Positions 1,553 to 27,436 of a DNA stretch of 38,859 bases are shown piece after piece. A model generated the notes under the pieces. It was not told the DNA's origin. It worked only from the letters and a program-made list of their open reading frames with translations, and searched no databases. The translations under genes and the position numbers were made by a program. Origin of the DNA: a virus (Duplodnaviria > Heunggongvirae > Uroviricota > Caudoviricetes); the IMG/VR virus record IMGVR_UViG_2563366883_000017; one strand, 5' to 3'. Position 1 is the first letter of the stretch, and each line of letters opens with the position of its first letter.

Positions 1553-1753
1553 TCACGAGGACTGAAGTTTCTCGCAATTAAAATTTATCAGTTTTACTTT
1601 CTGCTCTCTGGAAACGCCTGCTTCTTTTTTACCTGAGAGCATTTTTTCGCATTCTGATTTCGTTAGTTTAGATTTTGAATATCTTGTCCAGTTAGTAGGA
1701 GTGCCACCTTCCTTTTCAATAGTGGCGGTAATTTTATACATGAACACCTCCAT
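1553..1753 (-). CDS. ydaC: Small Rac prophage protein YdaC-like (DUF1187)
   Basis: ORF MEVFMYKITATIEKEGG...; start chosen at ATG 1751-1753 rather than the upstream extension, which is the alternate frame of the ralR 3' end. Confidence 0.7.
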   Translation of the reverse strand: MEVFMYKITATIEKEGGTPTNWTRYSKSKLTKSECEKMLSGKKEAGVSREQKVKLINFNCEKLQSS

Positions 1754-1928
1754 TATTATTTCCAGTGGTTCGTTTATTTCATCGTTCGAGTGCTTCTTTT
1801 TCACTTCCACCATAACCGGTTCGGGATTCGCATCCGTTACACTTCGCTCGGTAATATCCTGAAATGGCTTTCACCGTTACTGATGGACAACCACAAAATG
1901 GACATGGTTTAACATTGTCATATCTCAT
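1734..1928 (-). pseudogene. ralR: RalR-like restriction-alleviation protein / type I toxin, frame interrupted by in-frame TGA at 1779-1781 (49 codons, then 14 further in-frame codons to TAA at 1734-1736)
   Basis: Hand translation of minus strand from ATG 1926-1928: MRYDNVKPCPFCGCPSVTVKAISGYYRAKCNGCESRTGYGGSEKEALER-TGA-NKRTTGNNNGGVHV-TAA. The N-terminal Cys-rich sequence matches recalled RalR; the frame stays open after the TGA to a length matching the recalled 64-aa protein. Confidence 0.6.
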
Positions 1929-1983
1929 AATTTTTCTCATAAAAATATTTCAAGTTGGCGGTGCATTACACCGCCAGGCTGAA

Positions 1984-2793
1984 TTATTCCTCTGAATTAT
2001 CGATTACACTGTATTCCCCGGTTAATACAGAGGAATCTGCAGGATCGATTGTCAGTGGTTCCTTTTCATCCATTGATACTGCACGCTGGATCTCAATTGA
2101 TACGGGCAGATATTTGAACAGGCGACGAATAGCCGTTTTCTTTGCCATTTCTTCCCAGTGAGTTACCCACGGCCCGTTATTACCAGCTTTACTCTGGCTG
2201 CGCACCAGCTCAATCTGTTTGCGCGTCATAACTTCAAACTGAGTACCTCCGTCTTTCAGTCTTGCGACAGCATAGACGTGGGTAACAGGGGCATCTTCGT
2301 TTTCTCCTGGGCGGTGTATTAACTTTTCATCAAGGCCAAATTCGAAATTAAACTCGTCACCTTCACGGACAACACGGGCTGACAGGCTGGCGATTTGACC
2401 TGAACGGCGAGCCAGATCAATCATGCCGCGATAGCCAATGATTAGCTGAACGTTTTTTTTACCGCTCTTTTCGTTTTTATTACCAAAAGGCAGTAAATAT
2501 GCATGACCGAGGGCGCTACCGGGCTCAAGTCCGAGCTGTGAACACTGTACGATTGCACTGACAAAACTCATAGTGTCACAGTTTCCTAACGCCGGAACTT
2601 TACGAATTTCTGTGGTGGCGATACGGATCATACGTTCAGCCGTCATATGGCGTGGAAGAGCTGCTGCCAGTTGCTCTTTCATTGATGGCTGGTTAATAAA
2701 ACTAATCACGTCGTTATTTTTAATTGCTGCTGGTGCACGGTTTCCCTGAGTTTTTTGCAGATCGGCTTTTGCGATTGGTGGTTGCTTAGTCAT
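1984..2793 (-). CDS. recT: Recombinase RecT (single-strand annealing protein), 269 aa
   Basis: ORF beginning [16 protein letters not shown]...; immediately downstream of recE with a 2-nt gap; classical recET pair of Rac. Confidence 0.9.
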
Positions 2794-7456: not shown

Positions 7457-7624
7457 CTTATCTCTCCCCTTAACGCCGGGTGGCGGAACTGAAACCTGCT
7501 GCACTGCAAAATCTGAACCCTGCCGTCATGTTCATACGCCTCGGGCTGGCTACTTAACCCCTGACCACTGCCTGGTAACTCGAAGTATTGCCCTGCGTTC
7601 TGTGGGGCGGGGTGGGTTGGTAGG

Positions 7625-7675
7625 TATATAATGTACTTTGTGTTCATTGATGTAAAGTACTTTAAGTACATTTTG
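7625..7675. promoter_or_regulatory. Left operator/promoter-like region: three copies of ATGTACT / AAGTACT / AGTACAT and a TATAAT hexamer
   Basis: Direct reading: taggTATATAATGTACTttgtg...taAAGTACTTtAAGTACATttt; the same ATGTACT core recurs on the other side of racR (8191, 8215). Confidence 0.4.
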
Positions 7676-7746
7676 TGTGTAAAAAAATGAGATGGGATAA
7701 AGTGAAGCACAAACCCGGAGGGGGACGCTACCGGATTTATGCTGGT

Positions 7747-8166
7747 TTAAGAGGCTTTTTGTTTTTTCTTTCGTGCTAGCTCTTCGTAAATTGCATTGTA
7801 CTTCTGTTTTTTCTCCTCAAGAGTTTTTAAAAGTTCATCTGTCTCACTGTCAGGGAGCTCGTCCAGAAGGTCAATGATGATTTTTTGTCTTGGATTTAAC
7901 TCCTGATAGAAACGTACCTGTCCACTTTCTTCTGTATCCTCTCCCAAAAGATAGGTTGGTGTTGTTCCAATGAGTGTTGCTAATTCCCTTAATTTCTCTC
8001 GGCGAGGAATTGTTTCGCCATTAAACCATTTGCTAACCGCTTTTGGTGTTAATTTCATTCGACGGGCAATTTCTGCCTGCCTTCCATGTTGTTCATAACC
8101 AGCGTTTTCACAGGCTAGCGCAAGCCTACTGGCGAACTCTTTACGCGCTTTATCTTCATGAACCAT
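7747..8166 (-). CDS. racR: Prophage repressor, XRE-family helix-turn-helix, 139 aa
   Basis: ORF MVHEDKARKEFASRLALACENAGYEQHGRQAEIARRMKLTPKAVSKWFNGE... (HTH); divergent from the cro-like ydaS; flanked by repeated operator-like motifs. Confidence 0.8.
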   Translation of the reverse strand: MVHEDKARKEFASRLALACENAGYEQHGRQAEIARRMKLTPKAVSKWFNGETIPRREKLRELATLIGTTPTYLLGEDTEESGQVRFYQELNPRQKIIIDLLDELPDSETDELLKTLEEKKQKYNAIYEELARKKKQKAS

Positions 8167-8187
8167 AAGTTCAATGATATTCGCTCT

Positions 8188-8224
8188 TGAATGTACTGTC
8201 AGTTCTGTTATAGCATGTACTCAA
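8188..8224. promoter_or_regulatory. Right operator-like direct repeats ATGTACT (8191-8197, 8215-8221) in the racR-ydaS divergent intergenic region
   Basis: Direct reading: gaATGTACTgtcagttctgttatagcATGTACTcaaagttcacat; 24-bp spacing; between divergent repressor and cro-like genes. Confidence 0.45.
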
Positions 8225-8245
8225 AGTTCACATTGTGAGGGTGAT

Positions 8246-8500
8246 ATGAACCAGAAAACACTTGAAGATGTAATCAAAACTGTTCGCGTTTCTGTTGTGG
8301 CCGACGTTTGTGGTGTCAGCCAAAGAGCAATCTACAAATGGATGGATAACGGAAAATTGCCTCGCACAGAATATACCGGCGAAACAAATTACGCTGAAAA
8401 AATCGCTCATGCATCAAACGGATTATTTTCTGCTGATGTAATTTTAACTATTGGCAGAAATAAAACTACTACGAAAAAGCTGATGGGAGTTGATTCATGA
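8246..8500 (+). CDS. ydaS: Cro-like / YdaS-like small DNA-binding protein
   Basis: ATG at 8246 (MNQKTLEDVIKTVRVSVVADVCGVSQRAIYKWMDNGKLP..., HTH-like); divergent from racR; stop overlaps ydaT start (ATGA). Confidence 0.7.
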   Translation: MNQKTLEDVIKTVRVSVVADVCGVSQRAIYKWMDNGKLPRTEYTGETNYAEKIAHASNGLFSADVILTIGRNKTTTKKLMGVDS

Positions 8501-8919
8501 AAATCAAGCATGAGCACATCGAGTCAGTGTTGTTAGCCCTGGCAGCCGAAAAAGGGCAGGCATGGGTAGCCAATGCCATTACTGAAGAATATCTGCGCCA
8601 GGGGGGCGGCGAATTGCCCCTGGTACCAGGCAAGGACTGGAATAATCAGCAGAATATCTATCACCGTTGGTTGAAAGGTGAAACGAAAACGCAAAGAGAA
8701 AAAATTCAGAAGCTGATCCCAGCAATTCTGGCAATCCTTCCGCGCGAGCTGCGTCACCGACTCTGCATCTTCGATACCCTGGAACGCCGTGCATTACTGG
8801 CGGCGCAGGAAGCGTTAAGTACGGCAATTGATGCGCATGATGATGCAGTCCAAGCCGTTTACCGGAAAGCGCATTTCAGCGGCGGCGGGTCTTCCGACGA
8901 TTCTGTCATTGTTCATTAA
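8497..8919 (+). CDS. ydaT: YdaT-like protein, 140 aa
   Basis: ORF MKIKHEHIESVLLALAAEKGQAWVANAITEEYL...; translationally coupled to ydaS. Confidence 0.7.
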   Translation: MKIKHEHIESVLLALAAEKGQAWVANAITEEYLRQGGGELPLVPGKDWNNQQNIYHRWLKGETKTQREKIQKLIPAILAILPRELRHRLCIFDTLERRALLAAQEALSTAIDAHDDAVQAVYRKAHFSGGGSSDDSVIVH

Positions 8920-8931
8920 GCAAAAGTTTCC

Positions 8932-9789
8932 ATGCTGTTTGTGCTTATTCTAAGCCACCGGGCAGCATCATACGGGGCAATTATGGCCGCATTACCATAC
9001 ATGCAACTGTACATAGCTGATTACCTGGCTGACACCATGCATTTGTCAGCAGAGGAGCATGGTGCGTATTTGTTGCTGATGTTCAATTACTGGCAAACAG
9101 GAAAGCCAATACCTAAAAACAGGCTGGCAAAAATTGCCCGTCTGACTAACGAGCGATGGGCTGATGTTGAACCATCCTTGCAGGAGTTTTTTTGCGATAA
9201 CGGCGAGGAATGGGTGCATCTTCGGATTGAGGAAGATCTGGCATCAGTCAGGGAAAAATTAACCAAAAAATCAGCCGCAGGAAAAGCATCTGTTCAGGCC
9301 AGAAGAAGCAGAAAGGAAGCAGATGTTCAAACAAAACAAGAGAGAAATTTAACAGGTGTTCAAACAGATGTTGAAGTGGTGTTTGAACATGATGTCAACA
9401 CAAAGGCAACTAATAAAGATACAGATAAAGATCTAAAAACAGGTCCCCCCCTAAATCCCCCCCGGGGGAATCGAGGTGTCAAAAAGTTTGACCCTCTGGA
9501 TATTGCTTTGCCGAACTGGATTTCTGTCTCGCTTTGGCGTGAGTGGGTTGAATTTCGCCAGGCATTGCGAAAACCGATTCGAACGGAGCAGGGCGCTAAC
9601 GGGGCGATACGGGAGCTGGAAAAATTCCGCCAGCAGGGTTTTTCACCTGAGCAGGTGATTCGACACAGCATCGCCAATGAATACCAGGGCTTGTTCGCGC
9701 CGAAAGGTGTTCGACCTGAGACGTTACTCCGACAGGTTAACACCGTCTCGTTACCGGATAGTGCGATCCCGCCAGGCTTCAGGGGGTAA
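8932..9789 (+). CDS. ydaU: Replication initiation protein YdaU-like (DUF1376), 285 aa
   Basis: 285-aa ORF directly upstream of the DnaC-like gene; position equivalent to lambda O. Confidence 0.7.
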   Translation: MLFVLILSHRAASYGAIMAALPYMQLYIADYLADTMHLSAEEHGAYLLLMFNYWQTGKPIPKNRLAKIARLTNERWADVEPSLQEFFCDNGEEWVHLRIEEDLASVREKLTKKSAAGKASVQARRSRKEADVQTKQERNLTGVQTDVEVVFEHDVNTKATNKDTDKDLKTGPPLNPPRGNRGVKKFDPLDIALPNWISVSLWREWVEFRQALRKPIRTEQGANGAIRELEKFRQQGFSPEQVIRHSIANEYQGLFAPKGVRPETLLRQVNTVSLPDSAIPPGFRG

Positions 9790-9795
9790 CTGACC

Positions 9796-18430: not shown

Positions 18431-18962
18431 GGGCTGGTTTATTGTATGCCAAATGATTATTAAAAAGGTTGTGTTAATAACAAAATCCGAAATAATATGC
18501 CTGCATATTTTTATCTTGCTTATATTCTGCATATTGTGCATAGCAGGCTCATCCCTGCAATCAAAACTGTATGATGAGTATTTTTTGTTTTCCTTTTTTC
18601 CAGTCATCTGATGATGACCTGCTTCTTTTTAATCCGGATCGACATCAGTTTTTTAAGATAATTCCTGCGAGTTATATGCATAAATGCCACAAACTCCGCA
18701 TTTTATGTGGTTGGGAGTTGCCGGGCGCGCAGTGAGTTTGCTAAGAAAACTCCTGCATGGTGAATCCCCCTGTGCGGTGGGGTGATACCATTAACCTTTT
18801 CTGTCGCCGACAGGTATCACGAACATTTTGTTCACCGGGAGGCACCCGGCACCATGCACTTCAATAGATTCTCTCCACATTATGGATATTCTTTCAGAAT
18901 ATCCCACGCAGACTTTGTGTAAATGTTAACAAATGTGCGTTTTATTTGATCTGATTCGCTGT

Positions 18963-25057: not shown

Positions 25058-26152
25058 ATGAGCAGACCGGACTGGGGGGCGTTGCAGCAGGAGTATATTG
25101 CTGAATACACCCGCTCCGGTATATCTCCGGTGGCATGGTGTGAAGCAAGGGGACTGAATTACGCAACAGCCCGTCGTTACATCAAAAAAACTCCGAAAAA
25201 TGCGCAGACAGAAATGTGCAAAACTGCGCAAAAAAGTGCGCAGAAAAAATCTGCGCAGACTGCACAAAAGCGGAACGAAAAATCTCAGGAAAAAAAGCCA
25301 GTATTCGATGCGGGCCTGAATGAGGGCGACGCGGAGGAATTTTCGTTCTGTCCCGATGAATTCGGCATTTCTGACCAGCAGGCTAAGTTTGCGATGCTTG
25401 TTGCTCAGGGTAAAAAGCCGACAGAGGCGTACCGACTAGCCGGTTATGAGGGGCAAGGTGCGACAGCTAACAGCAACGCCAGTCGTATGCTTAGAAATGC
25501 CAGGGTTTTTCGCGCTATCAGCTACTTCCGCAATCAGTACCAGAAACGCTATACCGCAGACCTGGATTTACTAGTGAGTCAGTTGATGGCTATTGTCCTG
25601 GCCGACCCCAATCAGCTTGCACAATTTCGCCGTGTTAACTGCCGTTATTGCTGGGGCGAGAATCATCTCTACCAGTGGCGCGATATAGCAGAATTCGACA
25701 AGGCAGCGGCGCAGGCTTCCAGAGATGGCAAACCCGAACCGGAATATGGAGGCCTCGGCTTTGTTGATAACGCCATACCCAATCCGGACTGCCCGAAGTG
25801 CTGCGGTGAGGGAACGGGACAGCTTTATATGGCTGATACCACTCTGCTTGATGGGGATGCGCGGCAATTATATGCAGGGGCAAAATTCGGAAAATTCGGC
25901 GTTGAGATCCTGCTGGAGGATAAGGCTGCCGCCCGGCGTGAATTGTTGCGTTTGTTTTCTGCTGGCGGGGCTTTATGTGCAGATAAGCGGCTACAGGAAC
26001 TGGAAATTGAACGGCGCAGAATGGAAAACCAGAAGCTGCGCAAAGAGATCGAAACGGTGGAAGATAATGAACATCCCCAGCCTGTGGCGATCAATATTAA
26101 TGTGGTTGATGCCAGAGTAAGGAGTGATGAAGATGATCTCTCCGACGCTTAA
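25058..26152 (+). CDS. Terminase small subunit (HTH N-terminus plus Terminase_2-like region), 364 aa
   Basis: N-terminal HTH (…GISPVAWCEARGLNYATARRYIKK…) and a central region typical of small terminases (…QQAKFAMLVAQGKKPTEAYRLAGYEGQGATANSNASRMLRNARV…); directly upstream of the large terminase. Confidence 0.6.
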   Translation: MSRPDWGALQQEYIAEYTRSGISPVAWCEARGLNYATARRYIKKTPKNAQTEMCKTAQKSAQKKSAQTAQKRNEKSQEKKPVFDAGLNEGDAEEFSFCPDEFGISDQQAKFAMLVAQGKKPTEAYRLAGYEGQGATANSNASRMLRNARVFRAISYFRNQYQKRYTADLDLLVSQLMAIVLADPNQLAQFRRVNCRYCWGENHLYQWRDIAEFDKAAAQASRDGKPEPEYGGLGFVDNAIPNPDCPKCCGEGTGQLYMADTTLLDGDARQLYAGAKFGKFGVEILLEDKAAARRELLRLFSAGGALCADKRLQELEIERRRMENQKLRKEIETVEDNEHPQPVAININVVDARVRSDEDDLSDA

Positions 26153-27434
26153 TGTGCCTCAGGCGCGATTTCTTTCAATGCCCCATAAATTTAAAGCCTA
26201 TATTGCTGGTTTTGGCTCGGGCAAAACATGGGTTGGGTGTGGCGGCATATGCAAGGGGATTTGGGAGCATCCAGGTATAAATCAGGGATATTTTGCGCCA
26301 ACGTATCCCCAAATTCGCGATATTTTTTACCCTACAGTGGAAGAAGTTGCTGCTGACTGGGGATTGAACGTAAAAATTAATGAGGGAAATAAAGAGGTTC
26401 ACTTTTATTACGGACGCCAGTATCGGGGAACCACTATCTGCAGATCGATGGAGAAGCCACAAACGATCGTCGGTTTCAAAATTGGTAATGCGTTGGTGGA
26501 TGAACTGGACATTTTGCCGAAGGAAAAAGCCAGAACGGCGTGGCGCAAGATAATTGCACGTATGCGTTATAAGATTGATGGACTTCGCAACGGTATTGAC
26601 GTTACAACCACGCCGGAAGGATTCAAATTTGTCTACGAGCAGTTTGTTAAAGCCGTGCGTGAAAAAACAGAGCTGGCCTCACTGTATGGTCTGGTGCAGG
26701 CATCTACTTTCGATAATGAAAAGAACCTGCCAGCAGATTACATTCCTTCGCTTCTTGAATCATACCCTCCAGAGCTGATTAAAGCCTATCTTCGAGGACA
26801 GTTTACTAACCTGACAAGTGGTACTGTTTACCATCAGTTTGACCGGAAACTGAATAATTGCGAAGAAGTGGAGCAGCCAGGGGAGCCGATTTATATTGGG
26901 ATGGATTTTAACGTTGGAAAGATGGCGGGAATCGTCCATGTGCTGCGTTTGGGGCTTCCATGTGCGGTAACTGAAATCATCAATGCCTACGATACGCCGG
27001 ATATGATCCGCATCATTAAAGAACGCTTCTGGCTGTATGATGGGAATGATTACCGGAAAGTGAGGGAAATTTATATTTATCCAGATGCTTCCGGGGATTC
27101 CAGAAAATCAAGTAACGCAAGTACGACGGATATAGCCCAGCTTAAGTAGGCTGGTTTTAACGTTGTGGTGAACAGCTCGAACCCGCCAGTAAAAGATCGC
27201 GTTAACTCAATGAATGCAATGTTCTGCAATGCCAATGGTGAGCGTCGCTATAAAGTTAATGTGAAGCGTTGCCCGTTATATGCCGAATCTCTGGAGCAAC
27301 AGGTCTGGGATGAGAAGGGGGAGCCTGATAAAAAATCTGGCAATGATCACCCGAATGATGCCGGAGGTTATTTCATCGTTAAGCAATTCCCTATTGTCAA
27401 ACCGACCGGAAGAGTCACATCACTTCGGATTTAA
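26127..27434 (+). pseudogene. Terminase large subunit interrupted by an in-frame amber codon (TAG 27147-27149); N-part 26127..27149, C-part continues in the same frame to 27434
   Basis: Walker A GFGSGKTW near the N-terminus; the 341-aa ORF and the following 89-aa ORF are in the same frame, separated only by TAG plus 5 codons; combined length about 435 aa is typical of a large terminase. Confidence 0.7.
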
Positions 27435-27436
27435 TT

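Follow-up and report, generated by a model that had tools for sequence, protein, structure and literature searches.

The question raised by this locus is whether a toxin gene interrupted by an in-frame stop codon still specifies a toxin. The window, by which we mean the whole stretch of 38,859 nucleotides that was analysed, is a Rac-like prophage of 38.9 kb that begins at intR (1-1236) and ends at a tail-fibre assembly gene (38275-38859), and it is collinear with the annotated Rac loci of LD39-1, E2865, NCTC9066, O55:H7, O157:H7 and K-12. It carries a version of ralR, the toxin gene of the type I RalR/RalA toxin-antitoxin system, in which the first-pass annotation, made from the DNA alone, had pointed out a TGA and proposed a truncated and possibly inactivated toxin.

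Translation of the minus strand from 1940 to 1734 gives MRKIMRYDNVKPCPFCGCPSVTVKAISGYYRAKCNGCESRTGYGGSEKEALER, a stop, NKRTTGNNNGGVHV and a second stop. Read from the K-12 start, ralR comprises ATG at 1928-1926, 49 codons, TGA at 1781-1779, 14 in-frame codons and TAA at 1736-1734, which agrees with the first-pass description in both its coordinates and its residue string. The codon positions total 64, equal to K-12 RalR (NP_415864, 64 aa, W at 50); both this length and a Trp (TGG) at the place of the TGA were given correctly in that description. Indeed, the translation of MG1655 ralR (b1348) is the frame of the window with W at position 50. When 501 bases around the gene were compared with K-12, ralR was found to differ at two bases only (2/195), namely a synonymous AGA>CGA at codon 49 and TGG>TGA at codon 50, which places the stop where the first-pass annotation had put it. 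The features of the interrupted gene are:

1779-1928, minus strand: truncated ralR coding sequence of 49 codons plus TGA, its product MRYDNVKPCPFCGCPSVTVKAISGYYRAKCNGCESRTGYGGSEKEALER bearing a CxxC...CxxC zinc ribbon (from translation; equal to RefSeq WP_001443846.1).
1779-1781, minus strand: premature TGA at codon 50, which is TGG (Trp) in intact alleles (from alignment to K-12 and other alleles and from the allele census).
1782-1784, minus strand: codon 49, CGA (Arg), a synonymous haplotype marker relative to K-12 AGA, common to the intact CGA TGG alleles.
1734-1778, minus strand: 3' remnant of ralR, codons 51-64 (NKRTTGNNNGGVHV) and the original TAA, identical in DNA to K-12.
1929-1940, minus strand: four upstream in-frame codons (MRKI) that yield the 53-aa ORF of some annotators (e.g., URC10275.1, phage record vB_EcoS-673R7).

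The 3' remnant is untranslated save by rare readthrough; it includes the Shine-Dalgarno element GGAGG, and overlaps the start, of the next gene, rcbA.

The most mundane explanation of such a stop, an artefact of sequencing or assembly at 1779, is a general possibility for any single-base difference and has nothing more in its favour here. We searched 5,426 complete E. coli genomes, in 1,922 of which the ralR region was found, with allele-specific 33-mers for which each 28-base seed had to span the variable base. The CGA TGA 33-mer was recovered from 310 complete genomes, the CGA TGG allele from 126 and the AGA TGG combination of the K-12 type from 1,509. The stop allele is thereby present in about 16% of the ralR carriers and in 5.7% of the complete E. 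coli genomes, where the 16% is a count and not a population frequency, the genome set being enriched in laboratory K-12/B derivatives and STEC outbreak isolates. Its carriers include O26, O111:H8, O103, O157:H7 (e.g., ATCC 43894 and 86-24) and O55:H7 as well as commensal and environmental strains. The same base occurs in three phage or prophage records, and at least 1,000 contigs are on record as encoding precisely the 49-aa product. An identical TGA-bearing 33-mer in 310 independently assembled genomes means that the stop is no read error; the census thus rules out a sequencing error at the TGA, and an artefact has practically no probability.

W50-to-stop is a common, database-catalogued population allele and no private mutation. 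PGAP annotates it as a 150-nt CDS for the 49-aa protein WP_001443846.1, under the name RalR and with no pseudogene flag, in LD39-1, E2865, NCTC9066, O55:H7 and O157:H7. The RalR/RalA system is already known and the allele is already in the databases; a literature search of main texts found no specific description of a truncated ralR allele.

The polarity of the change has to be settled as well, for the TGA might be the ancestral gene end and the 64-aa K-12 form a stop-loss extension of it. K-12 is not always ancestral at this locus, as its rcbA has undergone precisely such a stop-loss (TGA>AGA). Against an ancestral TGA in ralR, W50 is found on two codon-49 backgrounds, in all divergent E. coli alleles retrieved (down to 92% DNA identity, every one 64 aa with W50), in homologues from Salmonella (64 aa, ...LVRWNKRA...) and Citrobacter (61 aa, ...LIRWNRRT...), which share the motif WN[KR]R, and across the Lar family as a whole, and the TGA is confined to one nearly invariant haplotype. 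The outgroups and the family alignment rule out K-12 ralR as the derived state, and we give an ancestral TGA essentially no credence. Intact CGA TGG alleles are seen in O157:H7 7.1_Anguil, O145, phage Rac-SA53, L73 and A17, so that one G>A transition accounts for the TGA of the window. On this allele comparison the TGA is the derived state and a CGA TGG allele its parent; the first-pass proposal of a TGG to TGA change that truncates the C-terminus holds, given the intact AGA TGG and CGA TGG alleles and the Trp of the divergent homologues.

Of the 310 TGA carriers, 308 are identical across 81 nt (an exact 81-mer), and a comparison over about 3.8 kb puts the window at 99.66-99.94% identity to the carriers LD39-1, NCTC9066, O55:H7 and O157:H7 and at 97.8% to K-12. 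Judged by these identities, one shared haplotype is the carrier of the TGA, and a single mutational origin with subsequent spread, both vertical and horizontal, would be the simplest reading. The first-pass annotation had held that reference RalR proteins naturally ending at this position would speak against a truncation. Formally such a protein is on record in WP_001443846.1; however, the 49-aa RefSeq entries are the same allele on the same haplotype and hence supply no independent evidence of a natural short form.

Other lesions were seen around this part of the module. One homologue cluster of 26 sequences shows W50S (LERSNKRT), and the homologue of strain F2_81 has a frameshift right after WNKRT; both could represent additional, independent damage to the C-terminus of RalR. 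In E. coli A17, the recE gene beside ralR is flagged by PGAP as a pseudogene with an internal stop, an instance of nonsense decay in the same module.

To see what the stop removes, it is necessary to consider the family to which RalR belongs. A word-indexed protein search recovered only 19 close relatives, the wider family being reached by an exhaustive HMMER search, run with a RalR profile built from five sequences, which found 3,968 relatives among 50%-identity cluster representatives. In 201 domain matches from the best-ranked relatives, W50 is conserved in 96% (the remainder being gaps), N51 in 93%, R53 in 84% and the zinc ligands in 95-97%, figures that are somewhat circular in that the best 150 of the 3,968 relatives were ranked by a profile that itself contains the W-N-x-R motif. 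Nevertheless, the score drops in the independent Pfam and TIGRFAM models agree with these conservation figures. Upon truncation the score against PF14354 (Lar_restr_allev) falls from 53.5 to 39.0 bits, which still passes the threshold of 28.6, with the match ending at profile position 52/58; that against TIGR03655 (anti_R_Lar) falls from 55.3 to 40.3 bits, marginally above its cut-off of 39.6, with the match ending at profile position 49/55. The NCBIfam RalR equivalog NF007260 scores the 49-aa product at 126.9 bits (cut-off 113) and the 64-aa K-12 form at 166, the former aligning to the first 49 of the 64 profile positions.

When 80 single-domain Lar proteins with 30-77% identity to the reference are aligned by MAFFT, C9, P10, F11, C12, G13, C30, C33, W50, N51 and R53 are invariant, and none of the 80 ends before W-N-x-R. 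The 49-aa product retains C9, C12, C30 and C33 (CPFCG ... CxxC), that is, the four-cysteine zinc ribbon, together with the β-hairpin, and lacks the W-N-x-R motif that all 80 family members have. In the AlphaFold2 model of a homologue with 64 aa and 92% identity (mean pLDDT 77), strands occupy 17-22 and 25-30 and one helix spans 43-52, followed by a low-confidence tail at 55-64. As predicted from this model, the stop removes the final turn of the helix, the W-N-x-R motif and an 11-residue tail that is variable and probably disordered. A PDB sequence search with RalR returned spurious weak CbpD matches only, and a Foldseek search with the model returned generic zinc ribbons only, at E>0.1; with no structural match beyond zinc ribbons, known structures offer no guide to what the C-terminal motif does.

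What is known of the toxin's activity bears directly on these missing residues. Cells that overproduce RalR lose about 1000-fold in CFU, and in purified form RalR acts as a non-specific DNase that depends on Mg/Ca (Guo et al. 2014, PMC4041452). According to the main text of that study, an error-prone PCR screen recovered changes at residues 14, 37, 39, 49, 51 and 52 that lower toxicity, and a purified residue-52 mutant showed no DNA cleavage (Guo et al. 2014, PMC4041452). Replacement of residues 43-46, EKEA to AIAE, abolished toxicity (Guo et al. 2014, PMC4041452). Among the toxicity-linked positions of the screen, 14, 37, 39 and 49 are present in the 49-aa product, and 51 and 52 lie beyond its stop. 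Since residues 51 and 52 are needed for toxicity or DNase activity and the W-N-x-R motif is invariant, truncation at 50 is a likely loss of function. Taken together, the point mutants and the conservation suggest that the W50-to-stop product is very probably a loss-of-function form, and the 49-aa protein would most likely be both non-toxic and catalytically dead. The first-pass suspicion of an inactivated toxin is thus strongly implied by the removal of the invariant motif and of residues 51 and 52, though by way of inference only.

The retained part of the protein invites a different interpretation, in which the 49-aa zinc ribbon would be a functional short isoform that keeps some activity, such as type I restriction alleviation or partner binding, free of DNase toxicity, and is selectively retained. 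The four Cys ligands and the β-hairpin are kept, the Pfam, TIGRFAM and NCBIfam thresholds are still passed and the allele is frequent in successful STEC lineages. However, no aligned Lar protein lacks the C-terminal motif, which is as invariant as the cysteines themselves, the stop takes away part of the only helix, and the frequency of the allele can be explained by STEC clonal expansion and sampling bias. We regard such an isoform as quite improbable.

A second possibility concerns the dosage of the toxin, with the stop acting as a leaky one: low-level decoding of the UGA by tRNA-Trp would yield wild-type 64-aa RalR, leaving a hypomorphic toxin attenuated in dosage and not dead. Trp, the residue ancestral at this position, is also the amino acid near-cognate to UGA when E. 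coli reads through nonsense codons, and neither the 14 codons after the UGA nor the TAA is damaged. Against this, the RNA downstream of the UGA has a predicted folding energy of -8.3 kcal/mol as compared to a shuffle mean of -8.46 (z-score 0.07) and thus offers no recoding signal. Furthermore, RF2 is fully active in natural isolates, unlike in K-12, so that readthrough well below 1% is to be expected. Nor does the integrity of the 14 downstream codons carry evidential weight, because the TGA haplotypes diverge by at most 0.4% over about 3.8 kb and the same bases serve as the Shine-Dalgarno element and start of rcbA. It has been argued more generally that many in-frame stops in bacteria experience purifying selection and work by reducing expression, and may accordingly persist as expression-lowering variants (Belinky et al. 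2021, PMC7918605). On balance, we consider a leaky stop improbable. Programmed recoding of the UGA, including selenocysteine insertion, is rejected: there is no stem-loop directly downstream of the UGA (z-score 0.07), and no Cys, Sec or UGA was found at this position in independent lineages, the column being Trp throughout the homologues and the UGA being restricted to one haplotype.

The leaky stop and the short isoform jointly take up only a small part of the probability. It is accordingly unlikely that W50-to-stop represents a selected attenuation of the toxin, be it through trace amounts of RalR arising from Trp insertion or through a non-toxic activity of the 49-aa zinc ribbon, e.g., in restriction alleviation. 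If it did, STEC and other lineages would retain the benefit of the Rac module at no risk of DNase self-killing, and the allele would count as a naturally occurring variant of a type I toxin, altered in dosage or separated in function, that is kept together with its sRNA antitoxin.

The surroundings of the interrupted toxin gene are preserved in the following elements:

1557-1735, plus strand: ralA, the RalA antitoxin sRNA gene, full length (Rfam RF02694, 225.1 bits against a gathering threshold of 170, model positions 1-179 of 179).
1619-1634, plus strand: the 16-nt repeat of RalA, TGCTTCTTTTTTACCT, complementary to the ralR target (from a direct-repeat search and the wild-type sequences of Guo et al. 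2014).
1791-1806, minus strand: the 16-nt RalA target in ralR, AAGTGAAAAAGAAGCA in the mRNA, codons 41-46 (GSEKEA), intact and matching the repeat in Guo et al. 2014 (PMC4041452).
1553-1741, minus strand: rcbA/ydaC homologue (DUF1187, 62 aa), directly downstream of ralR (PF06688, 132 bits, positions 1-61 of 61; PGAP WP_001302840.1).
1984-2793, minus strand: recT, the upstream neighbour in the Rac recE-recT-ralR-rcbA module (from PGAP on identical DNA in LD39-1 and E2865).

The ralA interval is identical to that of K-12 and lies antisense to rcbA, and the RalA target ends 10 nt upstream of the TGA. A full-length RalA gene, the 16-nt complementarity and the Rac context at ttcA, between recT and rcbA, are therefore all in place, and the element of a RalR/RalA system that is wanting is an intact toxin ORF, given the TGA at codon 50 of 64. 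In other words, the RalA antitoxin is intact beside a toxin that is very probably disabled. Some E. coli records feature RalR-DUF1187 fusion proteins with the junction ...GSEKEA|GVSREQ..., as would result if the DNA between the two 16-nt direct repeats of RalA and ralR were deleted; besides serving in antitoxin pairing, the two repeats (1619-1634 and 1791-1806) may thus also be a deletion hotspot, as these junctions suggest.

The gene downstream of ralR has some individuality of its own. In the window and in the 15 other loci examined, rcbA ends in a TGA (1553-1555, minus strand) after 62 aa, and K-12 rcbA alone has AGA at this place, giving a 7-residue stop-loss extension to 69 aa; this distribution marks the K-12 rcbA as the derived allele. 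The Shine-Dalgarno GGAGG of rcbA is the same as in K-12. The stop of ralR and the start of rcbA overlap in K-12; in the window ralR ends 37 nt upstream of the rcbA start, from which we infer that any translational coupling would be lost.

This spacing leads to the notion that the G>A change was selected by way of rcbA expression, either through the uncoupling of rcbA from ralR translation or through an improved -35-like hexamer (ATGGAA>ATGAAA). A promoter-like ATGAAA-16 nt-AATAAT is present at 1782-1755 on the minus strand, its hexamer matching the -35 consensus at 4/6 positions. The overall match, however, is 9/12 only, in an AT-rich region where 4 such matches were found as against 1.6 in shuffles, and transcription from such a promoter would have to begin within the Shine-Dalgarno element of rcbA. 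Given the weak consensus match and the implausible geometry, the new promoter is rejected as probably due to chance, and selection through rcbA is very improbable.

The state of the element as a whole provides the backdrop for the fate of its toxin. Segments 7483-10867 and 25425-38144 of the window have no counterpart in the Rac element of LD39-1, to which the window is otherwise 99.9% identical; this marks the window as a more complete version of the same prophage; the IS2 that LD39-1 carries in rrrD is missing from the window. The late region of the window includes genes for a terminase, a portal-like protein, a Mu-F-like protein and a tape measure. A transposase of the Mutator family (IS256-like; 36585-37793, minus strand; PF00872, 397 bits) separates the tape-measure region from the tail-fibre assembly gene, and the tail module appears to be disrupted by its insertion. 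The terminase large-subunit ORF (26124-27149) encodes 341 aa that match the N-terminal domain family Terminase_6N only, and is separated by a gap of about 290 nt from the portal-like DUF4055 ORF (27437-28843); the terminase may be truncated. The prophage looks defective, which fits gene decay.

Further Rfam matches above gathering in the window are STnc100 at 18725-18911 (plus strand, 86.6 bits) and IS009 at 38618-38816 (plus strand, 220.9 bits), the latter inside the region of the tail-fibre assembly gene. Elsewhere, the record PP818812.1 ('Actinobacillus phage vB_Apl-pPE4') includes a stretch that shares about 90% identity with the rcbA-ralR-recT module of Rac type in E. coli, with an intact but unannotated 64-aa ralR; its attribution to Actinobacillus pleuropneumoniae looks odd.

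Thus, returning to the question posed at the outset, we hold with considerable confidence that the locus carries a natural nonsense allele of ralR, W50-to-stop, in which a disabled toxin would sit beside a RalA sRNA and an rcbA gene that are both intact, a stage typical of the decay or domestication of a defective prophage. Speaking against decay are the missing PGAP pseudogene flag and a score above the RalR equivalog cut-off; furthermore, on the CGA background the TGA allele (310) is commoner than the intact one (126) and spans several phylogroups, so that it could be tolerated or even favoured. As to its mechanism, W50-to-stop is ordinary prophage gene decay. The main value of the finding lies in a caveat for annotation and for the transfer of K-12 results to other strains. 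RefSeq names the 49-aa product 'type I toxin-antitoxin system endodeoxyribonuclease toxin RalR', unflagged, in hundreds of genomes that include STEC of O157:H7, O26, O111 and O103. Phenotypes established for the K-12 RalR/RalA system, namely toxicity, the fosfomycin response and restriction alleviation, would, when carried over to such strains, probably be transferred from a functional gene to a disabled one. At the same time, the allele offers a ready-made natural mutant for probing the W-N-x-R motif of the Lar family.

When set against known systems, the window presents likenesses and departures at three levels. RalR is reportedly the protein formerly known as Lar, encoded by lar, a name said to go back to King & Murray 1995. 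With the Lar family (PF14354/TIGR03655) the window product shares the N-terminal K-P-C-P-F-C-G and the second C-x-x-C of the zinc ribbon, but it is without the C-terminal W-N-x-R found in every aligned member.

The closest counterpart is the RalR/RalA system of the K-12 Rac prophage, which has the same gene order, intR-xisR-rcbA/ralA-ralR-recT-recE by ttcA (Guo et al. 2014, PMC4041452). Compared with it, ralA and the 16-nt complementarity are unchanged and the two ralR genes are 2/195 bases apart; yet the window product has 49 aa and not 64, and is devoid of W50, N51, K52 and R53, whereas its rcbA product has 62 aa in place of the 69 in K-12.

More broadly, the locus resembles the pseudogenisation of toxins in toxin-antitoxin systems and the in-frame stop polymorphisms described in bacteria (Belinky et al. 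2021, PMC7918605), with which it has in common a single nonsense change, an undamaged antitoxin and a defective prophage as its setting. Unlike in the usual toxin pseudogenisation, the antitoxin of this locus, an sRNA, lies antisense to a third gene, rcbA, and the overlap with rcbA alone may keep the ralA region conserved. It also differs from the usual case in that the disrupted allele is unusually widespread, being found in 310 complete genomes.
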